Source: an uncultured Rhodospirillaceae bacterium (GTDB lineage Bacteria; Pseudomonadota; Alphaproteobacteria; Rhodospirillales; Magnetospirillaceae). Taken from it: a DNA stretch of 64,000 nucleotides. The notes beneath the pieces were generated by a model, which was given only the letters and a program-made list of their open reading frames with translations, was not told the DNA's origin and made no database searches. The position numbers were made by a program, and so were the translations under genes. The stretch spans positions 775-64,774 of the forward strand of contig CAZJFH010000014.1 of the NCBI GenBank assembly GCA_964545205.1, given 5' to 3'. Shown here piece by piece: positions 1,503-64,000 of this stretch. Each line of letters begins with the position of its first letter. Position 1 is the stretch's first letter.

Positions 1503-1518
1503 GTGAAACGAACAAGAT

Positions 1519-1597: not shown

Positions 1598-1617
1598 AAG
1601 CCGTGCCGGGAGAAGAA

Positions 1618-3615
<1,998 letters not shown>

Positions 3616-3619
3616 TCTT

Positions 3620-3735: not shown

Positions 3736-3754
3736 TCAGAGCGAGGAGCGAGAG

Positions 3755-4666: not shown

Positions 4667-4721
4667 CGCCCCTGCGACCTCGGTATATACATCAAGTCCG
4701 TTGATTTGATGGTGCGAGGGA

Positions 4722-5267
4722 ATGCTGCCGTTCGACCCCGCTGCTCTGAAGGTGCTCGTGGTCGAGGACAGCGAGCATTTCCGCCTGTTGATCCGCACCG
4801 TCCTGCACAGCATGAACATCCGCGACGTGCGCGAGGCGGCGGACGGCACCGAAGCGCTGGCCGTGCTGCGCGAATTCGCCGCCGACCTGCTGATTCTCGA
4901 CTACAAGATGGAGCCGATGGACGGCATCAGCTTCGTGCTGAAGCTGCGCCGCTCGGCCGAGAGCCCGAACCCCTACGTGCCGATCGTGATGGTCACCGCC
5001 TATGCCGAGGCCAGCCTGGTGCGCGAAGCGCGCGACGCCGGCATCGACGAGTTCCTGACCAAGCCGCTGTCGGCGAACGGGCTGATGACCCGCATCATCG
5101 GCGCGCTGCAGCACCGGCGCCGATTCGTGCGCAACGACACCTATGTCGGTCCCGACAGGCGGCGCCAACAGGTGGCCTTCACCGGACCCGACCGGCGCCG
5201 GCCGGCCGAGGGCGAACCGGAGGCGGGCGAATTCGCCCCTTCCGCGCAGGATCGCGTTGAGACTTGA
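4722..5267 (+). CDS. single-domain CheY-like response regulator with an arginine-rich C-terminal tail (two GPDRRR motifs)
   Basis: Receiver motifs VLVVEDS...DLLILDYKMEPMDG...VMVTA...KP, followed by the tail YVGPDRRRQQVAFTGPDRRRPAEGE. Confidence 0.85.
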   Translation: MLPFDPAALKVLVVEDSEHFRLLIRTVLHSMNIRDVREAADGTEALAVLREFAADLLILDYKMEPMDGISFVLKLRRSAESPNPYVPIVMVTAYAEASLVREARDAGIDEFLTKPLSANGLMTRIIGALQHRRRFVRNDTYVGPDRRRQQVAFTGPDRRRPAEGEPEAGEFAPSAQDRVET

Positions 5268-5369
5268 TATCTTTGGCTTCCTGTCCGTCCATAATGGCGA
5301 TAGAATTCGGCAAAACATGATTGGTCCGACCGGATTCCACCCGTCGGAGCGGAGACGAGCGGTTCGCGT

Positions 5370-5936
5370 ATGGGCGGTTACAACCTCGACAGACTGAACT
5401 TCCTGGTCGTCGACGACAACAAGCACATGCGGGCGCTGGTCAAGACCATCCTGCATGCCCTGGGCTCGAAGAGCGTCGTCGAGGCGGCCGACGGCGCCGA
5501 CGCGTTCAAGGAACTGCGGCACTTCCCCGCCGACATCATCATCTGCGACTGGAACATGTCGCCGCTCGACGGCCTCGACTTCGTGCGCCTGGTGCGCACC
5601 GGCAAGGACAGCCCGAATCCCTTCGCGGCGATCATCATGCTGACCGGCCACACCGAGATGCACCGCGTCGTCGAGGCGCGCGACGCCGGCGTGCACGAGT
5701 TCCTGGCCAAGCCGATCTCGGCCAAGGCGCTGTATTCGCGCATCCGCTCGATCATCGAGCGGCCGCGGCCGTTCATCCGCACGGTGACCTATTTCGGTCC
5801 CGACCGCCGCCGCAAGCAGATGGACTACAAGGGCAAGGAGCGGCGCAAGTCGGCGGCCGCGGGCGGCGGTGCGGCGGCGGTCGATCCGGGCGGCGGCCTG
5901 AGCCAGGCCGAGATCGAGGCGCTGCTGAACGGCTAG
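5370..5936 (+). CDS. single-domain CheY-like response regulator with an arginine-rich C-terminal tail (paralog of 4722-5267)
   Basis: Receiver motifs FLVVDDN...DIIICDWNMSPLDG...IMLTG...KP, followed by the tail YFGPDRRRKQMDYKGKERRKS. Confidence 0.85.
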   Translation: MGGYNLDRLNFLVVDDNKHMRALVKTILHALGSKSVVEAADGADAFKELRHFPADIIICDWNMSPLDGLDFVRLVRTGKDSPNPFAAIIMLTGHTEMHRVVEARDAGVHEFLAKPISAKALYSRIRSIIERPRPFIRTVTYFGPDRRRKQMDYKGKERRKSAAAGGGAAAVDPGGGLSQAEIEALLNG

Positions 5937-11870: not shown

Positions 11871-11963
11871 TCAGGGTTGCGAATGCTTCCAGCCTGACGA
11901 TGTGACGGTTCCGGCATGTTTCACTGATGTGAATACTACCAAAGGCGGGCTTCCGACAGACAT
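11871..11963 (-). CDS. candidate 30-aa small ORF with a strong Shine-Dalgarno sequence, embedded in a hairpin
   Basis: The minus strand reads AAGGAGGATTATG TCT GTC ... CCC TGA, giving MSVGSPPLVVFTSVKHAGTVTSSGWKHSQP. The SD and start lie in the loop of the 9-bp stem CTACCAAAG/CTTTGGTAG. There is no homology evidence. Confidence 0.2.
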   Translation of the reverse strand: MSVGSPPLVVFTSVKHAGTVTSSGWKHSQP

Positions 11964-12194
11964 AATCCTCCTTCTTTGGTAGGGGGTGGCATGCCGCAAA
12001 AGAGGAGTATCGCGGCGCCGCACGCCCCGCGCTCGGCGGCGGCGGGCCAAATCGTGGCCATCGCAGGGGGGCTTGCCGGACGCGAACGGGTTGCCCGTGC
12101 CGAATCGGCCGAACCATTGGTTTCATGCGTACCCCCTCTACCCGACCCGACGCGACGGCGGCGTCTGATACAGTTTTGAAAAAACGGGTTCGGG

Positions 12195-13403
12195 ATGAGC
12201 AGGAAGAGCAGGCGCCGCAGCCGGCGCCGCCAGATGAGAAGCGCCAAGCTGCGGACCTCGCTGCGGGCGTTGATGCGCCGGCTCGGCCACGAGGAGCTTC
12301 ACGGCGAGGCGATGCTGAGGGCCTGCCGCCGGGCCCTGATCCATGATCGCCGATTCCGCGACGCGCTTGCCAATCTCGGCGTCGCGCTGGCCGAGCAGGA
12401 CCGCGAGTTGCGTTACGTCTGGGCCTACAAGCCGTTCGGCGCGACCCCGGCGGATGAGATGGTCGGCCGCACCGACGCCGACCTGCTGCCGGCCGACAAC
12501 GCCGCCGCGCTGACCGAGGCCAAGCTGGCGGTGATCGCGGAACGCCGCGGAATGCGCCAAATCCTCGACCTGACGACGCCGACCGGCCGCAAGGTGCTCG
12601 ATATTCGCATCGAACCGGTCCTGGGGCCGGACGGCTGCGTCACGGGCGTGGTCACCGCCGCCCTCGACATCACCAACCACCAGCAGGTGGAGGACCTGTT
12701 GCGGCGGCAGCGGGACGAGGCCGAGGCGGCGGTCGTCTCGAAGAGCCGGGCCATCGCCCGCGCCAGCCACGACCTGCGCCAGCCGTTCCAGGCCATGCGG
12801 ATGTTCCACGAAGTCCTGTCGGCGCAACTGCAGACGCCGCGGCAGCAGATGGTCGCCGCGCGACTCGGCGAGGCGATGGCGGCCAGCGAAGAGTTGCTGA
12901 CCAACCTGCTGGAACTGTCGACCTTCGACAGCGGCCCGGTGCGGATCCATCTCGAGGAGTTTCCGGTCGCCGACGTGCTCGCCGCCCTCGACCTCGAGGG
13001 CTCGGGGCCGGCGGCGGCGAAGGGGCTGCGGCTGCGGGTCGTGCCGTCTTCGGCCCGCATCGTCAGCGACCGCGTCATGCTGACCCGGCTCATGCGCAAC
13101 CTGCTGGTCAACGCGATCCGCTACACCCGCCAGGGCGGAATCGTGTTGGGCGCGCGGCGGCGCGGCGACGAGGTGCTGCTCGAGGTGTGGGACACCGGCA
13201 TCGGCATCCCGCCGGACCAGATTCCGCTGATCTTCGAGGACTTCTACCGCGGCGGCAATGTCGGCGAGGCCGAGCGCGGGCTCGGCCTCGGACTGGCCGG
13301 GGTGGCGCGGCTGAGCCGCGTGCTGGCCCATCCGGTGACGGTGCGCTCGGTGCTGGGGCGCGGGTCGGTGTTTTCGGTCGCCGTCCCGGGCGCTGCGGAG
13401 TGA
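12195..13403 (+). CDS. PAS-domain sensor histidine kinase (the start may be at a downstream Met)
   Basis: H-box ASHDLRQPFQAM, N/G boxes NLLVNAIRYT...WDTGIGIP...GLGLGLA, and a PAS-like segment before the H-box. Confidence 0.85.
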   Translation: MSRKSRRRSRRRQMRSAKLRTSLRALMRRLGHEELHGEAMLRACRRALIHDRRFRDALANLGVALAEQDRELRYVWAYKPFGATPADEMVGRTDADLLPADNAAALTEAKLAVIAERRGMRQILDLTTPTGRKVLDIRIEPVLGPDGCVTGVVTAALDITNHQQVEDLLRRQRDEAEAAVVSKSRAIARASHDLRQPFQAMRMFHEVLSAQLQTPRQQMVAARLGEAMAASEELLTNLLELSTFDSGPVRIHLEEFPVADVLAALDLEGSGPAAAKGLRLRVVPSSARIVSDRVMLTRLMRNLLVNAIRYTRQGGIVLGARRRGDEVLLEVWDTGIGIPPDQIPLIFEDFYRGGNVGEAERGLGLGLAGVARLSRVLAHPVTVRSVLGRGSVFSVAVPGAAE

Positions 13404-13793
13404 TCAGCGATAGTGCAGCCGCATGAGATCGTCGTCCTTCATCACGCGCTCGGTGAACACGGCGGCCACCCGGTCGAGGACCGGAAGAACGCCACTGCGG
13501 TCACCGGCCGCGGCGCGCAAGTCGCTCAGGCAGTCGCGCAGCAGGTCGTGGCCGGCGAGGTGGTGGTCGAGCCGCGGATAGTGGTGGGCCCGCAGAAACC
13601 GTTCCTCGCGTTCCAGATGGCCCTGGACCAGCGTCAGCAGCCGCTTGACCAGCCGTTCGCGTTCTTCGGGCCCTGGACGGGGTTCCTCGCGTTCCACGAG
13701 CCGGTGCAGGCACACGGCGATGGCCCAGTGTTCCTCGTCGTTGTCCTGCAGAAAGGCCGCGACCGGATCGATCGCCGCCGGCATCACGTTCAT
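13404..13793 (-). CDS. divergent hemerythrin-like (HHE-type) protein
   Basis: A His/Glu-rich helical pattern: EEHWAIAVCLHRL, QGHLEREERFL, HHYPRLDHHLAGHDLL. This resembles hemerythrin cation-binding repeats, but the final HxxxxD is not evident. Confidence 0.5.
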   Translation of the reverse strand: MNVMPAAIDPVAAFLQDNDEEHWAIAVCLHRLVEREEPRPGPEERERLVKRLLTLVQGHLEREERFLRAHHYPRLDHHLAGHDLLRDCLSDLRAAAGDRSGVLPVLDRVAAVFTERVMKDDDLMRLHYR

Positions 13794-13926
13794 TGACCCG
13801 CTCTCCTGATCGAGGGCTCATTGTGCCCCGGGTGGCGCGGGCCGGGAAAGCTATCCTATACGGTATCGGGTGCAAACCAAAGTCGGAGGCGGGCGGGGCC
13901 GGTCGGACGGACCCGCCGCGCATGCG

Positions 13927-14316
13927 CTACCACAGGTTCAACGCCAGCCGCGCGTCTTCCGACATCCGGCTCATGTCCCACGGCGGGTCCCACACCAGGT
14001 TGACGGAAACCTGGCCGACGCCCGGCACCGCCGCCACCGTGTCGGCCACCTTCTGCGGCAGGGTGCCGGCCACCGGGCAGGCCGGCGCGGTCAGGGTCAT
14101 CTGGATGGCGACGTCGCCGTTCTCGGCGATGTCGATGTCGTAGATCAGCCCCAGGTCGTAGATGTTGACCGGAATCTCGGGGTCGTACACCTCGCGCAGG
14201 GCCCATTCGACGGCGTCGCGGTCGGCCGGCTCCTGGCCCGCGTCCAGGGGGGCGCCGGAATGCGCTTCGCCTTCCGGCGGCGGGGGTTCGGCAAAAGGTC
14301 GCACCATGTCGTTCAC
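13927..14316 (-). CDS. sufT: SUF-system Fe-S assembly protein, DUF59/SufT type
   Basis: Motif VYDPEIPVNIYDLGLIY...LTAPACPV... is typical of DUF59. It is the last gene of the suf operon. Confidence 0.85.
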   Translation of the reverse strand: MNDMVRPFAEPPPPEGEAHSGAPLDAGQEPADRDAVEWALREVYDPEIPVNIYDLGLIYDIDIAENGDVAIQMTLTAPACPVAGTLPQKVADTVAAVPGVGQVSVNLVWDPPWDMSRMSEDARLALNLW

Positions 14317-14787
14317 CTACTCGGTCGATACCGCTTGCGTGTCCTCGCCTTCCAGCGCGGCGTTGAGCGTGTGCCAGGCCAGCGTCGCGCACTTCACCCG
14401 CATCGGGTATTGGCGCACGCCGCCGAGCACCTCCAGCCGCTCCAGATCGTCCTCCAGACCGGGGGCCGGATAGGCGTCGCCGCTGCCGGTGGCGAGGTAG
14501 TGGAAGTTGTCGAACAGGATCTTGACCTGCTCGGGCGTCTTGCCCTTCAGCACCTCGGTCATCAGCGAGGCGGAGGCCGTGGAGATCGCGCAGCCGCGGC
14601 CTTCGAAGGCGACGTCCTCGACGGTGCCGTCGGCGCCGACCTTCAGATAGACGGTGATCTGGTCGCCGCACAGGGGGTTGTGGCCCTTGGCCTCGCGGTT
14701 GGCGTCCGGCGGGTGCCGGAAGTTCCGCGGGTTCTTGCCGTGATCCAGGATGACTTCCTGGTAGAGATCGCGCAGCTCGTCGCTCAT
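14317..14787 (-). CDS. sufU: SUF-system NifU-family Fe-S scaffold/sulfur acceptor (SufU-like)
   Basis: Motifs LYQEVILDHGKNPRNF...NPLCGD...GRGCAIS...CATLAW. Its ATG overlaps the sufS stop. Confidence 0.85.
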   Translation of the reverse strand: MSDELRDLYQEVILDHGKNPRNFRHPPDANREAKGHNPLCGDQITVYLKVGADGTVEDVAFEGRGCAISTASASLMTEVLKGKTPEQVKILFDNFHYLATGSGDAYPAPGLEDDLERLEVLGGVRQYPMRVKCATLAWHTLNAALEGEDTQAVSTE

Positions 14788-16028
14788 CGCCGGAACATCG
14801 CCTCCACCTTCTCGAGTGCCTCGGCCAGGGCGTCCGCCTCGGCGCGGGTGTTGTACAGTGCGAACGAGGCGCGCGCCGTCGCCGCCACGTCGAGCCGGTC
14901 CATCAGCGGCTGGGCGCAGTGGTGGCCGGCGCGGATCGCCACGCCCGAGCGGTCGAGCACGGTGGCGATGTCGTGCGGGTGGGCCTCCCTCATCCCGAAC
15001 GAGATCACGCTGGCCTTGCCCGGCGCGGTGCCGATCAGGTGCAGGCCGGGAACCGCCGACAGGCGCTGGGTGGCGTAGGTCAGCAGGTCGTTCTCGTGCG
15101 CGGCGATGCGGTCCATGCCAAGGGCGCTGACGTAGTCGATCGCCGCCGCCAGCCCGATCGCCTGGCTGATCGCCGGGGTGCCGGCCTCGAACTTGGCGGG
15201 CAGGGGGGCGAAGGTGGTCTTCTCGATGCTCACCGACAGGATCATGTCGCCGCCGCCCTGATAGGGCGGCATGGCGTCCATGATCTCCTCGCGGCCCCAC
15301 AGCACGCCGATGCCGGTCGGCCCATAGAGCTTGTGGCCCGAGAAGACGTAGAAGTCGCAGCCCAGCGCCTTGACGTCGACCGACAGATGGGTCACCGCCT
15401 GGGCGCCGTCGACCAGCACCTTGGCGCCGACGTCGTGCGCCATGCGCACCATCTCCTCGACCGGCAGCACGGTGCCGAGCACGTTGGACATGTGGGCGAT
15501 GGCGACCAGCTTGGTGCGCGGCGTCAGCAGCTCGGCATACTTGTCGAGCCGCACCTGTCCGGCGTCGTCGATCGGCACGACCTTGAGCCTGAGGCCCTTC
15601 TCGTCGCGCAGCATCTGCCAGGGGACGATGTTGGCGTGGTGCTCGAGCTCGGTGATGACGATCTCGTCGCCTTCCTTCAGGAATTTCCGCCCGTAGCACG
15701 CGGCGACCAGGTTGATCGCCTCGGTGGCGTTGCGGGTGAAGACGATCTCGTGCGCCTTGGGCGCGCCGAGGAACCGGCGCACGGTCTCGCGCGCCTGGTC
15801 GTGACGCTGGGTGGCGCGGTCCGACAACCAGTAGATGCCGCGATGGATGTTGGCGTATTCCTCTTCGAGGAAGCGCCGCTCCGCGTCGAGCACCGCCAGC
15901 GGCTTCTGCGCCGAGGCGGCGTTGTCGAGGTAGACCAGCGGCTTGCCGAACACCTGGCGCGACAGGATCGGGAAATCCTTGCGGATCTGCCCGACGTCGT
16001 AGGGCGGCCTGTCGACGATGCCCATCAT
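14784..16028 (-). CDS. sufS: cysteine desulfurase SufS
   Basis: Motifs IRKDFPIL...VYLDNAASAQKP...FSGHKLYGPTGIG...RAGHHCAQP. The start is trimmed to the MM at 16028, after the repeat. Confidence 0.9.
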   Translation of the reverse strand: MMGIVDRPPYDVGQIRKDFPILSRQVFGKPLVYLDNAASAQKPLAVLDAERRFLEEEYANIHRGIYWLSDRATQRHDQARETVRRFLGAPKAHEIVFTRNATEAINLVAACYGRKFLKEGDEIVITELEHHANIVPWQMLRDEKGLRLKVVPIDDAGQVRLDKYAELLTPRTKLVAIAHMSNVLGTVLPVEEMVRMAHDVGAKVLVDGAQAVTHLSVDVKALGCDFYVFSGHKLYGPTGIGVLWGREEIMDAMPPYQGGGDMILSVSIEKTTFAPLPAKFEAGTPAISQAIGLAAAIDYVSALGMDRIAAHENDLLTYATQRLSAVPGLHLIGTAPGKASVISFGMREAHPHDIATVLDRSGVAIRAGHHCAQPLMDRLDVAATARASFALYNTRAEADALAEALEKVEAMFRR

Positions 16029-57598: not shown

Positions 57599-57696
57599 GG
57601 GGCCTCCCGGCGCTGATGCGAACGCGACGACCTTAACTTATTCGGGGGGGCAAGGTACACTGCGCGCGTCTGAGCGGTCGGGGAACACGGTTGAGC

Positions 57697-58593
57697 ATGA
57701 GCGGCGAACAAACGAAGCTGGCCATCGCCTTCGCCGACGTGCGCGGCAGCACCGCCATCTACGAGATGTTCGGCGACGTGCGCGGGCGCGAGATCACCGG
57801 CGGCGCCGTCAACGCGTTCGTCCGCGCCGCCGAATCCCAGGGCGGACGACTGATCAAGACGATGGGAGACGGCGCCATGGTGACGCTGCCGTCGGCCCAG
57901 GCGGCGGTGCTGGCGGCCATCGCCACCCAGGAGCATCTGCGCGCCAAGCAGGTCTCGATCGGCATCGGCTTCATGTGGGGCAGCGTGCTCGAGGAGGGCG
58001 ACGACGTGTTCGGCGACGCCGTCAACGTCGCGGCGCGGCTGTGCTCGCTGGCCAAGGCGGGCGAGATCCTGACCACCGCCGAGACGGTGGCCGAGTTCCC
58101 GTCGGTGCTGCGCGGCGTCACCCGGCATCTCGACACGGTCGAGGTCCGCGGCCGCCGCGAGCCGGTGCAGATTCACCAGGTCACCTGGGACAGCGGCGAC
58201 GACGACGAAGGCGGGATGACGGTGATCGCGACCAAGGGCGACCCCGCCAACCTGCGACCGAAGGCCCTCACCCTGACCGCCGGCGGCCAGGACTACCGGC
58301 TGGACGTCGACGCCAAACCGGTGCGGCTCGGCCGCGTCGGCGCCGACATCGTCGTTCCCGACACCCTGGCCTCGCGCCAGCACGCCACCATCGAGCCGTG
58401 GCGGGGCAAGTTCATGCTCGTCGACCAGAGCACCAACGGCACCTACGTGACCACCGACCACGGCGGCGAGACGGTGCTCAAGCGCGAATCGGGCGAACTG
58501 ACCGAAAGCGGCTGGATCGGCCTCGGCCGCCGGCCCACGCCCGAGAACCCCCACCGCGTCCGCTTCGTCGTCGATCCCGGCGACGGCCAGTAG
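57697..58593 (+). CDS. class III nucleotidyl cyclase domain fused to a C-terminal FHA domain
   Basis: Cyclase blocks: IAFADVRGST, IKTMGDGAMV, GDAVNVAARL. FHA block: RLGRV..ADIVVPD.LASRQHA...LVDQSTNGTYV. Confidence 0.75.
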   Translation: MSGEQTKLAIAFADVRGSTAIYEMFGDVRGREITGGAVNAFVRAAESQGGRLIKTMGDGAMVTLPSAQAAVLAAIATQEHLRAKQVSIGIGFMWGSVLEEGDDVFGDAVNVAARLCSLAKAGEILTTAETVAEFPSVLRGVTRHLDTVEVRGRREPVQIHQVTWDSGDDDEGGMTVIATKGDPANLRPKALTLTAGGQDYRLDVDAKPVRLGRVGADIVVPDTLASRQHATIEPWRGKFMLVDQSTNGTYVTTDHGGETVLKRESGELTESGWIGLGRRPTPENPHRVRFVVDPGDGQ

Positions 58594-58596
58594 GGC

Positions 58597-58860
58597 TTAG
58601 GCGCAGTCGTCTGGCGCCGGTGCGGGGCGCCTCCGCCCGCGGCGCAGCGACGCGCCGGCGATCGCCGCAACCGCCGCCGCTCCGAACGTAACGGCGCAAC
58701 CGCCGCAATTCACGCAAGCACCGCCGCGACAGGTCTGCGCAAGCTGCTGCGCCGCGCCGAGAGTGAACGCGCCGGAAGTCCCGTACAGCATTCCGCCGAT
58801 CGCGCCGCGCAACGACAGGATGCGCGCGGCGAACCCGCGCAGGATCGCCGCGACGTTCAT
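58597..58860 (-). CDS. small Cys-rich hypothetical protein (87 aa)
   Basis: The ORF contains CRGGACVNCGGCAV and hydrophobic Gly/Ala segments. Its ATG overlaps the stop of the upstream 4Fe-4S gene (ATGA). Confidence 0.5.
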   Translation of the reverse strand: MNVAAILRGFAARILSLRGAIGGMLYGTSGAFTLGAAQQLAQTCRGGACVNCGGCAVTFGAAAVAAIAGASLRRGRRRPAPAPDDCA

Positions 58861-59810
58861 GGCAGGAGAGCTCCGGGGGCGGTGAACTCTACCGCGTTGC
58901 GCCGCGCGACCGGCCCCCGGGCGTAGGTCAGGGCGTCATGGGGGCAGGCGGCGATGCACTGGTTGCAGGTCAGGCAGGTGTGGATGCTGAGATCCACTCC
59001 CGGACCGCTATGGGCGGCGTAGGCCCCGGCCGGCGCCGGGACGATCGCGCGGGTCGGGCAGACCTTGATGCAGTTGTCGCAACTCCGGCATTTCTCCGGC
59101 AGGAACCGGACCTTCCAGGTGAACGGCAGGCGCGCCCCGACGGCGTGGACAAGGTTCTGGATGGCGCCGACCGGACACAGGAACACGCACCAGCCGCGTC
59201 CGCCCTTGATGAACAGGCCGCCGACCACGATCCACAGTAGCGAGACTATGATGTATGTCGAGGTCAGCGCCGGCAGGAAGCCGCCGCCGAAGCCCAGGCC
59301 GATATACTCCATCACGCGGAAATTGCAGTACGAGCAGCCGGCATGCAGTCCCAGAAACGGCAGCGTCAGATATCCGGCCAGAAAGCCGTAGCGGACGGCG
59401 CCCGCATGGACGCGACCGGCGAAGTCGAATTTCAGGCGCTCGGGTACGAAGCGGCCCAGGAATTCCGGAAAGGCACCCGCCGCGCAGAGCCAGCCGCAGA
59501 ACAAAGGCCCGGCGGCGAATGCGATGGCCAGGACGACAAATATGCTGGCGTGGCGCACGTCCCACTGCATGGTCTCCCAGCGTTCGAGGTTCAGCAATCC
59601 GCCGACGCCCATCCTCAGGTTCAGCGAATCGCACAGATTGCCGATGAGGTGCTGATCGTCGAGGCCGGACACGAACCGCAGCACCAGGGCGCCGGGCGAG
59701 TAGAACAGGATGAAGCCGCCGAGATAGGAGGCGTACCGCCACAGCAGGTGGCGGCCGTTGGCGCGCGCGACGGCGCTGCCGCCTTTCAGGAGGTCGCTGG
59801 GATTTGCCAT
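58857..59810 (-). CDS. membrane-bound 4Fe-4S binding protein (NapH/MauN/NosR/YccM-like)
   Basis: TM helices carry FCGWLCAAG and WCVFLCPVG motifs. Two ferredoxin motifs follow: CRSCDNCIKVCP and CLTCNQCIAACP. Confidence 0.75.
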   Translation of the reverse strand: MANPSDLLKGGSAVARANGRHLLWRYASYLGGFILFYSPGALVLRFVSGLDDQHLIGNLCDSLNLRMGVGGLLNLERWETMQWDVRHASIFVVLAIAFAAGPLFCGWLCAAGAFPEFLGRFVPERLKFDFAGRVHAGAVRYGFLAGYLTLPFLGLHAGCSYCNFRVMEYIGLGFGGGFLPALTSTYIIVSLLWIVVGGLFIKGGRGWCVFLCPVGAIQNLVHAVGARLPFTWKVRFLPEKCRSCDNCIKVCPTRAIVPAPAGAYAAHSGPGVDLSIHTCLTCNQCIAACPHDALTYARGPVARRNAVEFTAPGALLP

Positions 59811-59817
59811 CGTGGCC

Positions 59818-60414
59818 TCAGTGGACGTGCATGGCGCCGTCCGGCATCGGAACGTCGCTGCTGTGGTCGTGGTCGCCGGCGGCCGCCCCGGCGATGGATC
59901 CGTTGACGATGCGCAACGGCGCAACCGCCATCGTCTCGCCGGTTTCCGGCGCAAAGGCGACGAGACTGCCGTCGCACAGGAGGTGTTCGCGCCGCAGCGC
60001 CTCGGGGACCTCGGCGAACAGATAGAAGGTCAGGCGCCCGCCGGGCGGCACCGGCGCGGCGACGGCGCGGGTTTCGGCGTCCCAGGTGTGGTTCCGGACC
60101 CGCCAATCGAAGAACAGGCGGCAGTCGTCGACGCGCAGACCGATCCGGAGCGGCGCCGTGCTGGCGTTGGTGACCGCGGTGAAGATGCGGAAGTGCCATG
60201 GCTGCACCGCCTTCTTGAGGTCGGTGAAGCCGCCGACGTCCACGGTCGCGGGTTTGCCCGCGGGGCCGGGGACCGTGAGAGCGACCTTGACCGATTCCCG
60301 CCCGGAAACGCTGTGGCCGTAGTAGCCGGCCGCGACCGGCAGGGACAGGCCCGCGGCGAAGGCAGCCACGGTGGCCAGCACCCGCGATCGCGGCGCGCGG
60401 AGGCCTGGAGTCAT
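59818..60414 (-). CDS. periplasmic hypothetical protein with a His/Met-rich C-terminal tail
   Basis: A signal peptide (ATVAAFAAGLSLPVAAG) and a beta-rich body, ending in GDHDHSSDVPMPDGAMHVH. It starts 2 nt after the TBDR stop. Confidence 0.6.
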   Translation of the reverse strand: MTPGLRAPRSRVLATVAAFAAGLSLPVAAGYYGHSVSGRESVKVALTVPGPAGKPATVDVGGFTDLKKAVQPWHFRIFTAVTNASTAPLRIGLRVDDCRLFFDWRVRNHTWDAETRAVAAPVPPGGRLTFYLFAEVPEALRREHLLCDGSLVAFAPETGETMAVAPLRIVNGSIAGAAAGDHDHSSDVPMPDGAMHVH

Positions 60415-60416
60415 GG

Positions 60417-62618
60417 TCAGAACCTCGCCGTCACTTCGCCGAAGAAGGTTCGGCCGGCCGCCAGGCTGCTCTGGTAGTATTCCTCGTCGAGGACGTTCGT
60501 GATCGAGAAGGACGTCGAGATCCAATCGGTGAAGCGGTAGCCGATTTTGGCGTCGGCGACCCAATGCGCATCGTAGGATCCGTACACGCCCTCGACCACG
60601 TCGCGGTTCTCGCTGTCGCCGTGCATGTGGCCGACATAACGGCCGATCACCGATCCCAGCCACGGACCCTCGGCGACCTCGATGCCAATGCTGGCCGTGT
60701 GTTCGGGCACGTAGGGAACGCGCTTTCCCACCGTCTCCGGCTCGGCGGCGTTCTCGGTGATTTCGGTATCGGTGAAGGTGTAGTTGGCGAACGCCTTTAT
60801 GCCGGGCGTGAGATAATGGCTGAGTTCCACTTCGGCGCCCTGGATCACCGCTTGGCCGGCATTCTCGCGGGTCGTGTCGCCATTGGCCAACCTTCGCTGG
60901 TAGATCAGGTCGCTGAGCCGGTTGTGAAAGAGAGTGCCGGCGATCCAGGTCTGCGACCACAGGCGCTGTTCGCCGCCGATCTCGAACGAGGTTGTCGTTT
61001 CGGGGTCGAGGTCGGGGTTCGAGCCGTTGACCTTGCCCGAGGTCGCGACCCAGGTGGAATACATGTCCGACAAGGTCGGCGCCCGGAATGCCTTGCCGAC
61101 GGAGCCCCGGACGGTGGTGCCCGGCTGCGGCTTCCATACCAGCGAAGCCTTGGGGCTGAAGGCGGAGCTGTTCCTGGTTTCGTAGGTTCGGAGAAAGGCC
61201 GGATTGATGTACTGCTGCACGACGCCTTCGGTCTGCCAGTAGTCGTAGCGCGCGCCGAGATATGCGGTCACCGAAGGCCACAGCGCGATCTCGTCCTGGA
61301 TGAAGGCGGCATAGATGCTGCTTTCGGCGTCGGCGCGGTAGCGCAGGTTTCCGGTCGCCGACTCTCGGCGCCAGTTCGCCAGGTCGTATTCGCGCTTGTT
61401 CAGCGTGTTGCGCGAGAACGCCACGCCGGCTACGACGAAATGCCGTTCGAAAAGCGGGAACTCGATCTGCGTGCTGCCCATCAGGCGATCGTTGGGAACA
61501 TCGACAAGCTTGCCGCCGCCCCCGGTGGCGGTCGCCGTTGCGCCCGGTGAGACGTACCAGTAGTTGTTGTCTGAATAAGAGCCGTCGATCTTGAGCATCA
61601 CGCCGCCTCCGAAGTCATGCTCGAAGGCTGCCGTGTACCGCAGGACGTCCTCGCCGTTGGGGCCGAAGAGGAAATTGTTCTCCCTCAGACGGATGCGTTG
61701 ATTGTTGCCGACATCGACGTTGCCGCTGACGACCGGTGCGCCCGCGTTGTCGAGAAGATACGAGTTGTAGCCCTCGAACGCGGTTTGGTGCTCGTGGTAG
61801 CGGACGCCCACGGTCAGCAGCGAATCCTCGGTCAGATCGAGGGTGAAGGTGCCTCCCGCGTTCTTCTGCCACCAACTGCGGGGCCCCTTGTCGCCGACCA
61901 GCCATGCCGGGTCGCCTTCGTCGGTCCGCGTCGGCACCAGGCCGGTGACTGCCGCGCCGGCGCCCGCCGACGGCTTCTTCACGACGAAGTCCTTGATGTA
62001 GCCGTCGCTGGCCTTGTAGCCGGCATCGACCCGCAGCCCGAAGCGGCCGATGCGATCCCCGTAGGACACGTGGGCGGTCTTGAGATCGTCGCTGCCGTAG
62101 CCGGCCTTGGCCGCGAAAGCTCTCTCGTCGGGCGCCTTGGTGATGATGTTGACCGCTCCGCCCATGGCATTCCCGCCATACAGCGACGAAAACGGCCCGC
62201 GCACGACCTCGATGCGCTCGATGTTTTCGGGGTCGATGACCGACCAGTTGATGCCGCCGGAAAAGCCGTTGTTGATCGACTGTCCATCGACCATCACCGA
62301 GGTGCGGTAATAGCCGGGGATGCCGCGGATGACCACTTGGTTGGCCCAGGCGCTGGGCGCCGCACCGGCGAAGTCGCGGACCAGAACGCCGGGCAGGTCC
62401 TTCAGCGCATCGGTGACCTGCTGCACCGGCTTCGACTGCATCTCCGCTTCGGTGACCACGCTGACGGCGGCCGGCGCGTCGGCGGTATCCATTGCCTTTC
62501 GGGTCGCGGTGACCACCACCTCGCCGAGCCGGGTCTGCTCCTCGGCCCGACCGGTGACCGGCAACAACAGCAACGCCGCGGCTGCCATGCTCGATCCACG
62601 CCACCCGATTACCGTCAT
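60417..62618 (-). CDS. TonB-dependent outer-membrane receptor (start 62618 or 62636)
   Basis: A signal peptide, the TonB-box/plug LGEVVVTATR...IERIEVVRGPFSSLYGGNAMGG, a long beta-barrel and a terminal ...GEVTARF. Confidence 0.9.
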   Translation of the reverse strand: MTVIGWRGSSMAAAALLLLPVTGRAEEQTRLGEVVVTATRKAMDTADAPAAVSVVTEAEMQSKPVQQVTDALKDLPGVLVRDFAGAAPSAWANQVVIRGIPGYYRTSVMVDGQSINNGFSGGINWSVIDPENIERIEVVRGPFSSLYGGNAMGGAVNIITKAPDERAFAAKAGYGSDDLKTAHVSYGDRIGRFGLRVDAGYKASDGYIKDFVVKKPSAGAGAAVTGLVPTRTDEGDPAWLVGDKGPRSWWQKNAGGTFTLDLTEDSLLTVGVRYHEHQTAFEGYNSYLLDNAGAPVVSGNVDVGNNQRIRLRENNFLFGPNGEDVLRYTAAFEHDFGGGVMLKIDGSYSDNNYWYVSPGATATATGGGGKLVDVPNDRLMGSTQIEFPLFERHFVVAGVAFSRNTLNKREYDLANWRRESATGNLRYRADAESSIYAAFIQDEIALWPSVTAYLGARYDYWQTEGVVQQYINPAFLRTYETRNSSAFSPKASLVWKPQPGTTVRGSVGKAFRAPTLSDMYSTWVATSGKVNGSNPDLDPETTTSFEIGGEQRLWSQTWIAGTLFHNRLSDLIYQRRLANGDTTRENAGQAVIQGAEVELSHYLTPGIKAFANYTFTDTEITENAAEPETVGKRVPYVPEHTASIGIEVAEGPWLGSVIGRYVGHMHGDSENRDVVEGVYGSYDAHWVADAKIGYRFTDWISTSFSITNVLDEEYYQSSLAAGRTFFGEVTARF

Positions 62619-62651
62619 GTCCACCTCCCTGATCATCGGACATCACGGGAG

Positions 62652-62676
62652 GGCAATAATCGTGCCAGTCATTGCC
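62652..62676. promoter_or_regulatory. inverted repeat GGCAAT-N13-ATTGCC just upstream of the TBDR start (candidate metalloregulator operator)
   Basis: An AT-enriched imperfect palindrome, GGCAATAATCGTGCCAGTCATTGCC. A related ATTATTGTC half-site lies at 62767-62775. Confidence 0.3.
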
Positions 62677-62798
62677 GGCCGAACGGCCTACTTCCGGGCC
62701 GCCGCCGGTGAGTCATTTGACTTCATGACCGTGTCAAAACACCGGTCGTCGGCGGAGATAGTTGGTATTATTGTCTTTCACTGTCCGACCGGCGCCGG

Positions 62799-63335
62799 TC
62801 AGCGCTGCTGTGGCGAGGGTTCCGGCCGGGAAGCCGGCTGCGGCATCGGCTCGCGGCCCTCGAACAGGCCGGCGCGCTGGCTCCAATAGGCGTCGACCGA
62901 CTGCTGCCAGTTGGCGTCGGCGACCTCGTCGAAGTTCTCGCTCTTGGCCGAGGGCGCCGCCTTCAGCACGTCCTCTGTGACGTTGACGACGTAGGTGTTC
63001 CGGCGCGGCCCGGCGTACAGCGCCGCCCAGGGCACCGCGACCATGCGCTCGCCGATGCCCAGGAAGCCGCCGATCTCGACCATCACGTAGGCGACCCGGT
63101 TCTGGTCGCGCTCCAGCAGCACGCCCTCGATCTCGCCGGCATCCTCGCCGTTGACCGTGAGCACGTCGGAATCCTTCAGATCCTCGCTCCAGATCAGGTT
63201 CGACCGGTCGATCTGCGGCGGCGAGGTCGTCGGCACGCCGGGCGCGGTCTCCTGGACGATGTTGTCCGCCGCCGCGGCCGGGGTTGCGGCCAAGGGCAGC
63301 AGGACCAGGGTGGTCAGCATCGTCTTGTTCTTCAT
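62799..63335 (-). CDS. secreted PRC-barrel domain protein
   Basis: A signal peptide, then ...GEDAGEIEGVLLERDQNRVAYVMVEIGGFLGIGERMVAVPW... Confidence 0.7.
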   Translation of the reverse strand: MKNKTMLTTLVLLPLAATPAAAADNIVQETAPGVPTTSPPQIDRSNLIWSEDLKDSDVLTVNGEDAGEIEGVLLERDQNRVAYVMVEIGGFLGIGERMVAVPWAALYAGPRRNTYVVNVTEDVLKAAPSAKSENFDEVADANWQQSVDAYWSQRAGLFEGREPMPQPASRPEPSPQQR

Positions 63336-63354
63336 GTCGTTCCTCCTGCCGTGG

Positions 63355-64000
63355 TCACCAGTACGGCCGTTGGCCGTAATGCTCGTAAAGCCGCCGCTCG
63401 GTCTCGCGGTCGACCGGCACCGCCGGGTCGTAGGTCGGGGCCTCCTCGACCCGGGCCTTGCCCACCGACAGCGACACGCGGCGCCGCTCGAAGTCGAAGC
63501 CCTCGACGGCCGCCGTCGACAGCAGCACCGCCTTCGACGGCAGCCAGTGGCCGGTGTCGACCACCAGCCAGCGGATGCGCCAGCCGTCCTCGTCGATCAG
63601 CACGTCCGAGACGCGGCCGATATCGCCGTCGGTCGCGCGCGCCGCGTAGCCGGTCAGCCGTTCGGCGCTGCGCAGATGCGGATCGCCCGCCGCCGCCGCC
63701 TCGCGCAGCACGGATTCCAGGGCCGGGTCGGTGCCCCACAGCGGCGGCGCCTTCGACGCCGCGTCGGTCCAGTAGGGCCACCAGCCGTAATGGCCGTGCA
63801 GCGCGACCTCCTCCTGCCGGCTGACCGGCTTGTCGCAATCGACGTCGGGGCTGTCCTCGACCTGCTTGCGGGTCAGCGAGACCGGGAAGGTGCGGGCGTC
63901 GGGATCGGGCCGTCCCAGCACGCCCGGCACGATCAGCACCCGCCGGCCGGTCAGCCAGCCGTGGGTGTCGACGACCAGATAGCGCACCGCCCAGTCGGTG
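63355..64000 (-). CDS. tandem PRC-barrel domain protein; the N-terminus probably lies beyond the window edge
   Basis: ...WAVRYLVVDTHGWLTGRRVLIVP... and ...GDIGRVSDVLIDEDGWRIRWLVVDTGHWL..., ending in YEHYGQRPYW. The reading frame stays open to position 64000. Confidence 0.7.
   Translation of the reverse strand, partial: TDWAVRYLVVDTHGWLTGRRVLIVPGVLGRPDPDARTFPVSLTRKQVEDSPDVDCDKPVSRQEEVALHGHYGWWPYWTDAASKAPPLWGTDPALESVLREAAAAGDPHLRSAERLTGYAARATDGDIGRVSDVLIDEDGWRIRWLVVDTGHWLPSKAVLLSTAAVEGFDFERRRVSLSVGKARVEEAPTYDPAVPVDRETERRLYEHYGQRPYW

Follow-up and report, generated by a model that had tools for sequence, protein, structure and literature searches.

We describe here four tightly packed genes, a putative operon, on the minus strand of the window, a 64,000-nucleotide stretch of DNA from an uncultured Rhodospirillaceae bacterium. 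A TonB-dependent outer-membrane receptor precedes a three-gene module encoding a 198-residue protein (mid), a membrane polyferredoxin, and an 87-residue Cys-rich protein (mini), and it is this module that is the conserved unit. Our tentative interpretation, which we hold at somewhat less than even confidence, is that the operon forms a metal-acquisition route, with copper the probable metal, in which the receptor and a module resembling a split CcoG capture and reduce the metal. The literature searched contains no description of the system, in agreement with the first-pass annotation of this sequence, which did not recognize it as a described one.

The genes occupy 58597-62636 in the open reading frame list of the window, and their junctions, confirmed by inspection, are as that annotation gave them: receptor and mid are separated by 2 nt (TGAccATG), mid and polyferredoxin by 7 nt (TGAggccacgATG), and polyferredoxin and mini overlap in an ATGA. 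Given such close junctions, and with no promoter-like or terminator-like site detected inside the operon by a simple scan, the co-transcription proposed at that stage is plausible; there is also no Rfam element in the operon. The longest reading frame of the receptor spans 60417-62636, although the ATG at 62618 is the likelier start, since it is preceded at 5 nt by a Shine-Dalgarno sequence (GGGAGGTGG) and agrees with the public gene call. The order of the four genes repeats at four further places (L001, L017/L007, L012, and L135) with 52-67% protein identity and different flanking genes, so that the arrangement exceeds chance. In the window the neighbors are norCBQD, about 2 kb away, and PRC-barrel genes, with no cuproenzymes among them.

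Features of the operon and its upstream region (positions in the window)
Feature	Position	Strand	Basis
Mini, 87-aa Cys-rich membrane protein, unnamed family	58597..58860	-	no family match
Mini Cys4 motif, C44-RGGA-C49-VN-C52-GG-C55	58696..58731	-	Cx3-4CxxCxxC conserved
NapH/CcoG-superfamily membrane polyferredoxin, 317 aa	58857..59810	-	Fer4_5, Fer4_7
Two CxxCxxCxxxCP [4Fe-4S] motifs, aa 241-252 and 279-290	58941..59090	-	Pfam Fer4, invariant Cys
Second membrane-boundary motif, C208-VFL-C212-P (CxxxCP)	59175..59189	-	invariant
C159-SY-C162 then N-F, CxxCN[FYW]	59325..59336	-	at least 90% conserved, 55 relatives
First membrane-boundary motif, C105-GWL-C109 (CxxxCA)	59484..59498	-	invariant, 55 relatives
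Mid, 198 aa, unnamed family	59818..60414	-	no Pfam, NCBIfam or PHROGs match
C-terminal metal-type tail P-D-G-A-M-H-V-H-COOH, aa 191-198	59821..59844	-	clade conservation
TonB-dependent outer-membrane receptor, 733 aa	60417..62618	-	Pfam Plug + barrel
Presumed operon promoter region (upstream intergenic)	62619..62798	-	sequence
Weak Fur-box-like site, 13/19 matches	62757-62775		sequence
Perfect 14-nt palindrome at stop of preceding PRC-barrel gene	62787-62800		sequence

Wherever a related locus includes upstream DNA, mid lies immediately 5' of the polyferredoxin, in Proteobacteria, Firmicutes, Actinomycetota, and Chloroflexi alike, and a mini homologue, a small open reading frame with the same Cys4 motif, comes directly after the polyferredoxin in 29 of the 33 related loci, in different phyla. 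The co-occurrence of families that the first-pass annotation had named as a check is thus seen for mid, the polyferredoxin subfamily, and mini in four phyla. The receptor, which had been placed inside the unit, falls outside the universal core, and most copies of the module lack one: it stands upstream in Proteobacteria only, in the window and three further lineages (L001/L017, L012, and L135), and its place is taken in many monoderm and Chloroflexi copies by FtsX-ABC-DUF4418. The genes around the module vary between lineages.

Mid is a member of a rare family, which accounts for nine clusters among 5.8 billion proteins and 108 representatives in a set of 1.84 billion, of typically about 190 residues with an anchor, an Ig-like beta-sandwich, and a metal-type C-terminal tail. 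In the window protein the N-terminal membrane helix (residues 9-32) carries a conserved G-x-G-Y-Y boundary and is followed by an eight-strand Ig-like beta-sandwich (residues 41-170, in which Cys98 and Cys147 form a pair) and a disordered tail, the AlphaFold model having a mean pLDDT of 75 with a core above 90. The protein had been described as a signal-peptide protein with a His/Met tail; the tail is present, but a membrane anchor is more likely than a cleaved signal peptide. The commonest Pfam match among mid relatives is FixG_C, the domain that the cupric reductase CcoG exposes to the periplasm; it is matched weakly by nine of 61 (best E 1.4e-4), and because of these matches we note that the mid/polyferredoxin pair resembles a split CcoG (FixG). 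The likeness is faint, in that the window mid itself has no FixG_C match and the mid profile aligns to a single FixG at E 0.12. Foldseek gives weak matches to cupredoxin domains (E about 3e-4, TM about 0.3), and the beta-sandwich core contains no conserved His, Cys, or Met, which counts against a copper role.

The polyferredoxin, from a family of about 315 residues, matches Fer4_5 (4.8e-13) and Fer4_7 (1.6e-11) in Pfam. It shares 25-27% identity with E. coli YccM and aligns with S. meliloti FixG (hhalign E 1.5e-7) over the TM4, CxxxCP, and ferredoxin region, its second membrane motif being aligned with the CxxxCP of FixG. All of the motifs listed in the first-pass annotation are present, except that the first membrane motif, given there as CxxxC(P), is CxxxCA. 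Four transmembrane helices (12-36, 85-100, 136-153, and 184-199; AlphaFold pLDDT 87.5) and the charges of the loops suggest that both termini are cytoplasmic, with CGWLCA at the cytoplasmic end of TM2, CVFLCP (within GGRGWCVFLCPVGA) at that of TM4, and CxxCN[FYW], which is specific to this subfamily, at the periplasmic end of TM3; PDB matches cover the ferredoxin domain, and there is no solved structure of the membrane part. The CxxCN motif is found in all but one related locus, often as CCxxCN, and is to our knowledge absent from E. coli NapH. The two ferredoxin motifs (CRSCDNCIKVCP and CLTCNQCIAACP) and both CxxxC pairs are therefore predicted to be cytoplasmic, as in NapH and CcoG, rather than part of the periplasm-facing redox module that had been envisaged, and only the CxxC pair, the mini Cys4, and the mid tail are predicted to be periplasmic.

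The closest family matches of the polyferredoxin are NapH and MauN, which raises the alternative of a respiratory role, with a NapH/NosH-like quinol dehydrogenase feeding periplasmic N-oxide reductases or terminal reductases of another kind, mid and mini substituting for NapG/NosG as subunits for docking or wiring, and the receptor loosely related, for example through cofactor supply. We consider this unlikely. A distant copy of the module in Desulfitobacterium lies within a nosZ cluster, on the same strand, between cytochrome c and Rieske/cytochrome b genes and directly upstream of nosZ, where nos cluster maps label the gene simply 'iron-sulfur protein' (PMC11096178); a NosZ-like gene is 7 kb away at L021, nirS is 5 kb away at L017, Rieske and cytochrome b genes are upstream at L045, and norCBQD is near the operon in the window. 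However, membership of NapH and of NosR was rejected, the NapH scores falling far short of the cut-offs (79 against 213 for TIGR02163, and 74 against 234). Moreover, no locus contains a NapG/NosG-type periplasmic ferredoxin, mid has no cofactor-binding motif besides its tail, and the majority of loci have no nearby reductase. A respiratory role also leaves unexplained the tight coupling, at the level of translation, with a TonB-dependent importer, a receptor clade always paired with NapH-like genes, and the multicopper oxidase, cupredoxin, and SCO1 contexts described below.

The receptor is canonical, as annotated, with Plug (E 1.3e-28) and barrel (E 1.3e-57) domains, a 22-strand barrel, a TonB-box-like EVVVTATR, a C-terminal Phe, and no Cys. 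Every NCBIfam subfamily or equivalog score is under its cut-off, and the top PDB sequence match is to the CirA plug only (3e-32); by the NCBIfam, PDB, and sequence tests it is excluded as an ortholog of a characterized siderophore, heme, B12, or OprC receptor. It is 52-63% identical to the L001, L017, and L012 receptors and contains a conserved H-E-H-Q-T motif (RYHEHQT) that takes the form HxHET in related receptors. This motif is restricted to receptors paired with NapH-like proteins, including more distant ones, and is absent from more distant receptors followed by ABC importers; in a second operon type an HxHET receptor precedes a distant NapH-like gene together with a PepSY_TM reductase gene.

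A receptor of this kind could instead import a ferric chelate, with the module reducing Fe(III) in the periplasm in the manner of FoxB, FpvG, or FhuF-type reductases, and we judge this slightly less probable again. The receptor scores narrowly under the TonB-siderophore cut-off (220.5 against 223.5), a weak Fur-box-like site lies upstream in the window, a PepSY_TM gene is present in the sister operon L114, and there are precedents both for receptor and reductase pairs, which are established for ferrisiderophores as cited in PMC13038864, and for a polyferredoxin, FtrD, as part of an iron transporter (PMC11966278). However, the Fur-like match is confined to the window among the upstream regions compared (L001, L017, and L012 lack it), no siderophore-binding protein, ABC importer, FeoB, or Ftr1 adjoins any copy, and the neighbors of relatives include copper proteins and none for iron. 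Cys-Cys and His/Met tails are also atypical for Fe(III), and CcoG acts on Cu(II), not Fe(III) (PMC7558416).

Mini, like mid, has no match in Pfam, NCBIfam, or PHROGs. It consists of a weakly hydrophobic Gly-rich segment, a Q-x-x-x-T-C-x4-C-x2-C-x2-C motif (CRGGACVNCGGC) that opens a hydrophobic helix, and then RRGRRR; the Cx3-4CxxCxxC core is kept from Proteobacteria to Desulfitobacterium and Actinomycetota. Since the basic cluster at the C-terminus is predicted on the cytoplasmic side, the Cys4 motif is predicted to sit where the membrane meets the periplasm, a placement that also draws on three-helix versions at L010, L012, L014, and L135. Three Cys-rich elements at the predicted periplasmic face, together with thioredoxin, DsbD_TM, and DsbD_2 genes in sister operons and a rhodanese-FKBP gene beside L012, are consistent with a relay that moves reducing equivalents through the membrane to cysteines in the periplasm, as in DsbD, CcdA, or ScsB, with the Cys-Cys tail of mid a shuttle that would serve to reduce disulfides or handle persulfides and not metals. 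We regard this as improbable, since the tail in the window clade, PDGAMHVH, has no Cys, those of many relatives are GGH, HH, or CH, both suiting metal binding better than thiol exchange, and the coupling to a TonB-dependent importer is not accounted for.

The tail itself looks like a metal ligand. The window mid ends in GDHDHSSDVPMPDGAMHVH, with a His/Asp-rich linker (DHDHSSDVPM) ahead of the tail, and the pattern PDG[AS][MIL]H[VN]H with its terminal His is kept across the clade, including as PDGA[MIL]H[VN]H-COOH, which answers the earlier concern that it might not be conserved. Distant relatives end in D/E-C-C-x(1-2), in GGH/HH or CH, or are tail-less, every tail-less case being in Chloroflexi, and the tail switches by clade from His/Met in Proteobacteria to Cys-Cys in monoderms. 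This is the pattern commonly seen for Cu(I) ligands, with His/Met in oxidizing and Cys-Cys in reducing compartments. Tail and mini co-occur, with both present at 28 loci, neither at 3, and 2 exceptions, in counts that ignore phylogeny. Several relatives have His-rich tails (HHHGGGH, GGHNH, and HEGGHHHDGALHN) that would suit Ni or Zn equally well, and the genes after the receptor's nearest relatives in sister operons encode DUF4198-like proteins that carry HH..CC motifs, so that the receptor could import Ni, Co, or Zn for buffering by mid, as the DUF4198 protein Zcp, a periplasmic zinc-capture protein (PMC12663993), does for zinc, with the polyferredoxin otherwise employed; this has a similarly slim chance, as zinc is redox-inert and would not call for an obligatory Fe-S partner, mid has no DUF4198 match, 13 loci contain no cobalamin or NiCo riboswitch, and the module has no adjacent genes for importers of Ni, Co, or Zn.

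Copper as the metal is favored by the neighbors of relatives, which include the NosZ of the Desulfitobacterium cluster and the NosZ-like protein near L021, a multicopper oxidase and cupredoxin at L016, cupredoxin-domain proteins at L024 and L042, SCO1/SenC at L135, and a YHS/HMBD P-type ATPase 5 kb from L001, and by CcoG itself, which reduces Cu(II) specifically and has two [4Fe-4S] clusters as well as an Ig-like domain in the periplasm (PMC7558416). In B. pertussis the CrtA receptor and the CrpH membrane reductase are encoded in one copper-starvation operon, and crpH and ccoG have a synthetic growth phenotype (PMC13038864). Against it, copper-protein neighbors occur in about six of about 33 loci, the window receptor has no Cys and is missing the OprC/NosA copper site, and there is no conserved CueR, CsoR, Fur, or Zur site; the upstream regions of the window, L001, L017, and L012 have no motif in common, and that of the window has no sigma-70 consensus match or Rfam element. 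The reductive metal acquisition suggested by the first-pass annotation is our best reading, with copper favored indirectly by the faint CcoG likeness and the copper-protein neighbors of relatives, but its periplasm-facing clusters are predicted to be cytoplasmic.

We propose that the receptor, identified as such by its domains, would import a metal or metal chelate into the periplasm, where mid, anchored in the inner membrane with its Ig-like domain outside, may take the metal on its flexible tail (PDGAMHVH here, Cys-Cys in monoderms). The predicted topology and the co-variation of tail and mini suggest that the tail could then pass its metal to a site rich in thiols on the periplasmic side of this membrane, formed by the polyferredoxin CxxCN and the mini Cys4. 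By analogy with CcoG, NapH, and NosR, electrons would leave the two cytoplasmic [4Fe-4S] clusters, travel by way of the CxxxC(P) pairs and the membrane domain to this site, and reduce the metal there, Cu(II) to Cu(I) for instance. The reduced metal may then be delivered to metalloenzymes of the periplasm or the membrane, or else to an importer. Copper reduction by CcoG is thought to occur on the cytoplasmic side, whereas the periplasmic site here follows from the predicted topology and is not a known property of the family. In FtrABCD, by comparison, the polyferredoxin has been proposed to act as an electron sink.

The operon is best read, by analogy of architecture, as a putative receptor-coupled metal reductase, a split CcoG-like module that is partly built of two unnamed protein families. 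A TonB-dependent receptor is followed by the three genes of the module, which encode a 198-residue Ig-like protein with a metal-type tail (mid), a 317-residue polyferredoxin, and an 87-residue membrane protein with a Cys4 motif (mini). The first-pass annotation described four closely packed minus-strand open reading frames, and both these and all of the motifs it quoted were confirmed in the sequence. Direct reading gives the junctions as TGAccATG, TGAggccacgATG, and ATGA, each internal start codon is preceded by a Shine-Dalgarno-like GAGG or GGAG, and within the four-gene cluster nothing resembling a promoter or terminator came up in a simple scan. The receptor start at 62618 (733 aa) is likelier than that at 62636 because GGGAGGTGG lies 5 nt upstream of the ATG at 62618, in agreement with the public gene call. 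The metagenome contig containing the window is 297.8 kb long. The stop codon of a convergent adenylate/guanylate cyclase-FHA gene is 3 nt from that of mini (58597, minus strand), leaving no space for a terminator between the converging units. The PRC-barrel gene that precedes the receptor has a stop codon overlapping with a perfect 14-nt palindrome, GACCGGCGCCGGTC, which is followed by a weak Fur-box-like site, GACAATAATACCAACTATC, with 13/19 matches; neither is kept upstream of the receptors in three related loci from other genomes or metagenomes (L001, L017, and L012). A shared operator was rejected, as the upstream regions of the window and these three loci cannot be aligned.

By Pfam, the receptor is a standard TonB-dependent receptor, with matches to the Plug domain (PF07715, 1.3e-28, aa 52-161) and the 22-strand beta-barrel domain (PF00593, 1.3e-57, aa 300-715), a TonB box (LGEVVVTATR) after a signal-like segment, and an aromatic C-terminus (...VTARF). 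It scores under every curated NCBIfam cut-off, the haem model included (217 against 317), and no equivalog-level model is close to its own cut-off, which bears out the expectation that it is not an ortholog of a characterised siderophore or cobalamin receptor. BtuB genes usually have a cobalamin riboswitch upstream, and Rfam gave no match at window positions 58000-64000, even at E≤1, and none at the gathering threshold in 12 related loci; assignment as a BtuB-type B12 receptor (145 bits against an equivalog cut-off of 599.7) and riboswitch control were both rejected. The best solved relatives in a PDB sequence search match in the plug only (CirA, YncD, and PhuR), and orthology to these was rejected. 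NosA and OprC are similar in being TonB-dependent importers of the outer membrane that are tied to the supply of copper for NosZ, with a denitrification setting in common, and the copper site of OprC is CxxxM-HxM (PMC7558416). The window receptor, however, contains no cysteine, which excludes a copper site of this type; it carries HxHET rather than this motif, and its PDB sequence matches at E≤1e-10 do not include OprC.

The 317-residue protein is a NapH/CcoG-superfamily polyferredoxin, and Pfam matches both Fer4_5 (4.8e-13) and ferredoxin motifs. NapH/MauN is its best named family match, yet membership was rejected with scores far under the cut-offs (TIGR02163, 79.3 bits against 213; the NapH equivalog NF007013, 74.1 against 234), even though the architecture is that of the family, with four transmembrane helices in the AlphaFold model, the motifs CGWLCA and CVFLCP, and two CxxCxxCxxxCP motifs. 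In the window's clade, the residue that closes the first CxxxC motif is A in place of P. NosR/NirI/PceC, whose NapH-like membrane and Fe-S part is fused to an FMN-binding domain at the N-terminus in the periplasm, was rejected, with no FMN_bind match and a protein just 317 aa long. The NapH/NosR model initially suggested thus failed the family tests, and CcoG is a closer functional model. AlphaFold predicts four membrane helices (pLDDT 87.5) and, taken with the positive-inside rule, these place the N-terminus, both CxxxC(P) motifs, and both [4Fe-4S] motifs in the cytoplasm; in NapH, where the topology is established, the Fe-S and CxxxC(P) motifs are also cytoplasmic. The redox module had been envisaged as facing the periplasm, and the predicted cytoplasmic position of the Fe-S clusters argues against this. 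A (C)CxxCN[FYW] motif (C159 and C162) does lie at the predicted periplasmic end of TM3, and is at least 90% conserved in 55 relatives. There is no solved structure for the membrane part, and Foldseek reached the soluble ferredoxin domain only.

For comparison with CcoG we used Sinorhizobium meliloti FixG, taken from pSymA by coordinates, which has Fer4_5, the dicluster domain Fer4_18, and FixG_C in one polypeptide. The window polyferredoxin does not belong to CcoG/FixG/RdxA in this single-polypeptide sense, as it matches Fer4_18 at only E 0.068 and has no FixG_C domain, and it is outside any ccoGHIS cluster. Its profile nonetheless aligns with FixG at E 1.5e-7 (hhalign); tblastn searches of plasmids returned E. 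coli YccM (25-27% identity over 76% of the polyferredoxin) and generic 4Fe-4S proteins, and no FixG. We had predicted that mid might be the counterpart of the periplasmic Ig-like domain of CcoG/FixG. FixG_C (PF11614) is the only Pfam family repeatedly matched among relatives of mid (9/61, best E 1.4e-4, with members scanned singly), although the window mid itself has no match, and the alignment of the mid family profile to FixG is weak (E 0.12), if located inside the FixG_C region. The tie to CcoG is therefore one of shared superfamily for the Fe-S subunit, and faint but plausible for the Ig-like subunit. In the part of PMC7558416 that summarises Marckmann et al. 2019, CcoG is described as the cupric reductase of cbb3 oxidase assembly, specific for Cu(II), with two [4Fe-4S] clusters and an Ig-like domain to which no function is assigned. 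The module shares with it the Fer4_5 region, CxxxCP, and two [4Fe-4S] motifs, its Ig-like protein may be a relative of the periplasmic FixG_C domain, and the function of CcoG is tied to copper supply. It differs in that a free-standing protein carries the Ig-like domain, together with an N-terminal anchor of its own and a metal-type tail, and in that the periplasmic CxxCN motif and the Cys4 protein are without described counterparts in CcoG. We thus suggest a likeness in architecture, split and permuted, and not one of membership.

Neither mid nor mini has a family match in Pfam, NCBIfam, or PHROGs, and PDB sequence searches with them gave low-complexity matches that we judged spurious. With the single sequence, a word-indexed search across 5.8 billion proteins yielded three clusters of mid relatives, and with a profile it yielded nine; in an exhaustive HMMER search, 108 of 1.84 billion representatives matched at E≤1e-3, and the family is genuine but rare. 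In the AlphaFold model (mean pLDDT 75, core >90), residues 9-32 form an N-terminal helix and residues 41-170 an eight-strand sandwich, and the tail (aa 176-198) is disordered. The motif G-x-G-Y-Y at the end of the hydrophobic segment is kept from Proteobacteria to Firmicutes, which would be unexpected for a cleaved signal peptide, and we infer that the segment is a membrane anchor, rather than the signal peptide first proposed for this His/Met-tailed protein. The best Foldseek matches in the PDB, to the cupredoxin domains of laccases and NirK, are weak (E ~3e-4, TM ~0.3), and a cupredoxin was rejected since no His, Cys, or Met is conserved in the sandwich, whereas type-1 ligands are His, Cys, His, and Met; the near-invariant residues are E40, K67, P72, N83, and P166. 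The ferrous iron transporter FtrABCD also pairs a small periplasmic beta-sandwich protein, the cupredoxin-like FtrB, with a NapH-like polyferredoxin, FtrD, in a metal-uptake operon (PMC11966278). It was rejected, as there is no Ftr1-type permease (FtrC) or P19 (FtrA) in the window or related loci; the core of mid is also without conserved metal ligands, and the electron sink for Fe(II) oxidation proposed for the Ftr polyferredoxin has the opposite direction to that proposed here.

The C-terminus of mid in the window's clade is PDG[AS][MIL]H[VN]H, His being the final residue; the divergence at L007, a metagenome copy, is only apparent, as a frameshift conceals HHHDGSMHVH. Other tails are D/E-C-C-x(1-2) (most monoderms), end in GGH, HH, or CH, or are missing, with the protein ending right after the sandwich. 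The switch between Cys-Cys in monoderms and His/Met in Proteobacteria follows the usual pattern of Cu(I) ligands, with Cys in reducing and His/Met in oxidising compartments. In MerA, a flexible C-terminal tail brings the metal ion to the reductase site, although for mid this is an analogy only. The core of mini is L-F-G-x-S-G-A...Q-H-x3-T-C-x3-4-C-x2-C-G-x-C; a hydrophobic helix comes next and then a basic cluster, which would put the Cys4 motif at the periplasmic membrane boundary; longer versions have an extra third helix. Tail and mini are both present in 28 loci and both missing in three (L038, L042, and L043, all Chloroflexi), the exceptions being L035, with a tail and no mini, and L045, tail-less with a mini-like motif (Fisher's exact test p = 0.003, uncorrected for phylogeny). 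This co-occurrence suggests that the tail and the Cys4 motif act together as functional partners.

The four-gene unit of the first-pass annotation recurs in the same order in L001 (flanked by guaA and a TPR-methyltransferase gene), L017 (Rhodospirillales bacterium BROCD014), L012, and L135, but the conserved core has three genes, and the receptor is missing from L010/L011/L018, L014, and L136, which have mid, polyferredoxin, and mini. These three families occur together across phyla, so that the anticipated co-occurrence in other genomes is seen for the core, and chance adjacency or a mobile-element artefact was rejected as gene order is kept amid unrelated flanks. A scan of 185,579 species, each represented by a single genome, gave 37 loci, a lower bound as it rests on two peptide patterns; all except BROCD014 are from Desulfitobacterium, Thermincola, Eubacteriales, Actinomycetota, Coriobacteriia, Thermoleophilia, Anaerolineae, or Chloroflexia. 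With our own HMMs, mid is directly upstream of the polyferredoxin in all loci with at least 35% identity and upstream DNA, and a Cys4 mini ORF follows the polyferredoxin in 29 of 33. In about 11 monoderm or Chloroflexi loci, an FtsX/MacB-type permease, an ABC ATPase, and DUF4418, a membrane protein with Cys/His, are upstream or flanking, in the position taken by the receptor in Proteobacteria, and are often on the same strand and contiguous with the module (e.g. L015, L022, and L042). The searchable literature has one paper with DUF4418, stating no function. The receptor is thus an upstream addition specific to certain lineages, and the core of three genes to which it is joined is universal. 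At L007, from a Logan assembly, the receptor, mid tail, and polyferredoxin are frameshifted; the genome record of what is apparently the same organism (L017) is intact, and therefore a pseudogene was rejected and assembly error is most likely. The plug domain of the L135 receptor is in another frame, also probably through assembly error.

Several loci have copper proteins as neighbors. The module of Desulfitobacterium sp. PCE1, whose mid tail is DCCAP, lies within a clade II nos cluster, in the order FtsX, ABC, DUF4418, cytochrome c, mid, polyferredoxin, mini, Rieske, cytochrome b, cytochrome c, NosZ, NosB, and NosD; published cluster maps mark the same genes only as iron-sulfur protein and unknowns (PMC11096178). 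FtsX-ABC-DUF4418, cupredoxin, and multicopper oxidase genes adjoin the module in a Coriobacteriales MAG, cupredoxin-domain proteins are beside it in L024 and L042, a NosZ-like gene is 7 kb away in L021, and a YHS/HMBD P-type ATPase is 5 kb away in L001. At L135, genes for an SCO1/SenC copper chaperone and a His/Met/Asp/Glu-rich 81-aa protein are ~1.3-2.3 kb upstream of the receptor. Upstream of the window operon, past the right end of the window, are the nor genes for nitric oxide reductase and its accessory proteins, with an 88-aa ORF and genes for two PRC-barrel-domain proteins in between, and nirS is ~5 kb downstream of the operon copy in L017; the organisms appear to be denitrifiers. When 148 neighboring ORFs from 31 loci were scanned against Pfam, only two-component regulators and FtsX/ABC/DUF4418 were recurrent and no universal cuproenzyme partner emerged, the counts being lower bounds as greedy ORF calling is noisy in high-GC DNA. 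Copper-protein neighbors are thus found at a minority of loci, which is above what we would expect by chance but short of a rule. The genes for a B12-binding corrinoid protein, a URO-D-like methyltransferase, and the corrinoid activase RACo following the module in L021, beyond which are a histidine kinase and the NosZ-like propeller-cupredoxin protein, probably belong to an unrelated methyltransferase system, although a corrinoid link is conceivable.

A distant polyferredoxin ortholog inside a clade II nos cluster is also a point of likeness to NosH, and the four transmembrane helices, two CxxxC(P), and two C-terminal [4Fe-4S] motifs are shared with NapH/NosH and YccM. The module could instead play a NosH-like respiratory role. 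We regard this as unlikely: no NapG/NosG-type periplasmic poly-[4Fe-4S] partner is present in the window operon or any related locus, and the module differs further in its extra periplasmic CxxCN, its obligatory mid and mini, and its coupling to a TonB-dependent receptor.

The receptor clade has a second operon type, apparently undescribed. Relatives were gathered by a metagenome scan with the receptor alignment, and the nearest (42-47% identity) do not have mid next to them. Several are followed by a DUF4198-like or unassigned protein of ~300-380 aa with a signal peptide, a HHINCC-type motif, and a C-terminal anchor, then by a distant NapH-like polyferredoxin, an HGD-D (2-hydroxyglutaryl-CoA dehydratase D-like) protein, and a BcrAD/BadFG-type ATPase. 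L114 and L116 then have DsbD_2, and the L114 operon ends with PepSY_TM and has thioredoxin, DsbD_TM, and cytochrome c' genes upstream. This architecture suggests that an imported substrate may undergo ATP-driven low-potential reduction. The motif H-x-H-E-T is common to the receptors of the window (as RYHEHQT), L001, L017, L012, L135, and the sister operons, and is missing from more distant receptors, those with ABC importers following. Coupling of this clade to NapH-type Fe-S proteins thus recurs in at least two architectures.

Loci and coordinates of the operons and neighboring features discussed
Feature	Locus	Coordinates	Strand	Content
Cyclase-FHA gene	Window	57691-58593	+	
Fur-box-like site	Window	62757-62775		
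Palindrome	Window	62787-62800		
PRC-barrel-domain protein	Window	62799-63335		
PRC-barrel-domain protein	Window	63355-63987		
nor genes	L008 (window's right-hand surroundings)	1224-5935 (~window 64.5-69.2 kb)		norC, norB, norQ, norD
Frameshifted copy	L007	5767-9759		
Intact copy	L017	7216-11195		
Module and corrinoid genes	L021 (Desulfitobacterium sp. Sab5)	11884-15157		
SCO1/SenC gene	L135	2210-2827		
81-aa ORF	L135	3000-3245		
Sister operon	L058	98-6328		
Sister operon	L059	5461-11680	+	
Sister operon, shorter second copy	L059	681-5334	-	Receptor, DUF4198-like protein, NapH-like polyferredoxin, DsbD_2
Sister operon	L102	6001-13710		
Sister operon	L114	1923-14232		
Sister operon	L116	1297-8740		
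FtsX/ABC/DUF4418 set	L015	2540-4893		
FtsX/ABC/DUF4418 set	L022	5517-9340		
FtsX/ABC/DUF4418 set	L042	5897-9348		
FtsX/ABC/DUF4418 set	L016	7232-9620		
FtsX/ABC/DUF4418 set	L024	5693-8459		
FtsX/ABC/DUF4418 set	L030			
FtsX/ABC/DUF4418 set	L039			
FtsX/ABC/DUF4418 set	L043			

In the split CcoG-like mechanism that we propose, the tail of mid would bind metal, the three periplasm-facing elements (tail, CxxCN, and Cys4) would form one site, electrons would flow outward to it from the Fe-S clusters, and the metal would be copper. The Bordetella pertussis receptor CrtA and membrane reductase CrpH are encoded in a copper operon, and CrpH has a synthetic phenotype with ccoG (PMC13038864); receptor-plus-reductase operons for copper therefore exist, and the function of CrpH overlaps with that of CcoG. 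CrtA-CrpH and the ferrisiderophore systems FoxA-FoxB and FpvG all involve an inner-membrane redox protein for an imported metal, with CrtA and FoxA as co-transcribed TonB-dependent importers, although CrtA is likened to the window receptor by operon logic and not by receptor sequence. The reductases of these systems are haem-binding PepSY_TM proteins unrelated to the polyferredoxin, with no equivalent of mid or mini. The same logic could serve ferric-chelate reduction, and the receptor is just short of the cut-off of the siderophore model TIGR01783 (220.5 bits against 223.5); we consider such a role quite improbable. We place little credence in a thiol relay, which could make use of the CxxCN and Cys4 cysteines. 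Capture of Ni, Co, or Zn is just as poorly favored, the nearest parallel being Zcp (DUF4198, Neisseria gonorrhoeae), a periplasmic metal-capture protein (PMC12663993). There is a likeness in having a periplasmic beta-sandwich behind TonB-dependent importers, and DUF4198-like proteins hold the position of mid in the sister operons, but mid is N-terminally anchored, its proposed metal binding is through a terminal tail and not a three-His pocket, and neither the window protein nor 61 relatives match PF10670, so that a DUF4198/Zcp identity was rejected.

Returning to the split CcoG-like reading, a broader form of it can be put forward speculatively, with the odds rather against it. The module may be an unrecognised cross-phylum machine that would provide copper in reduced form, on the outer side of the cytoplasmic membrane, to cuproenzymes beyond the cytoplasm (NosZ, multicopper oxidases, and haem-copper oxidases), filling a NosR/NosL-type role in clade II N2O reducers, and HxHET receptors may be a new TonB-dependent class that always hands its cargo to a NapH-type Fe-S reductase, in at least two architectures (this one, and that with DUF4198-like, HGD-D/BcrAD, and PepSY_TM genes). 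Literature searches on DUF4418, on NapH with nosZ and Desulfitobacterium, and on polyferredoxin with TonB and copper turned up no description of the module, and the early view of an undescribed import-plus-redox system has largely stood. Little is understood of how bacteria acquire copper and bring it to periplasmic enzymes in its proper oxidation state, especially in the case of N2O reductase, the one biological sink that we know of for a major greenhouse gas; we also know of no well-characterised bacterial cupric reductase other than CcoG. The locus offers a compact and testable system, in which a CcoG-type Ig-like domain would be a separate protein with a metal-catching tail, alongside two further periplasm-facing cysteine motifs, and which in Proteobacteria is additionally joined to a dedicated outer-membrane importer. 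Two nameless protein families gain names and hypotheses, genes marked 'iron-sulfur protein' or 'unknown' in Desulfitobacterium and Desulfosporosinus nos clusters would be accounted for, and a receptor clade is highlighted whose members pair with NapH-like reductases. Even if the metal is not copper, the system would represent a reductive uptake route of a new kind.

We also note that two short low-coverage contigs labelled as a Thermaerobacter marianensis MAG (L018 and L019; DYIH01000173.1 and DYIG01000063.1) carry a module that is 52-59% identical to the proteobacterial one, with a His-type tail, ...PDGAMHSPPVNSH; either the His-tail clade reaches Firmicutes, or these contigs are mis-binned.
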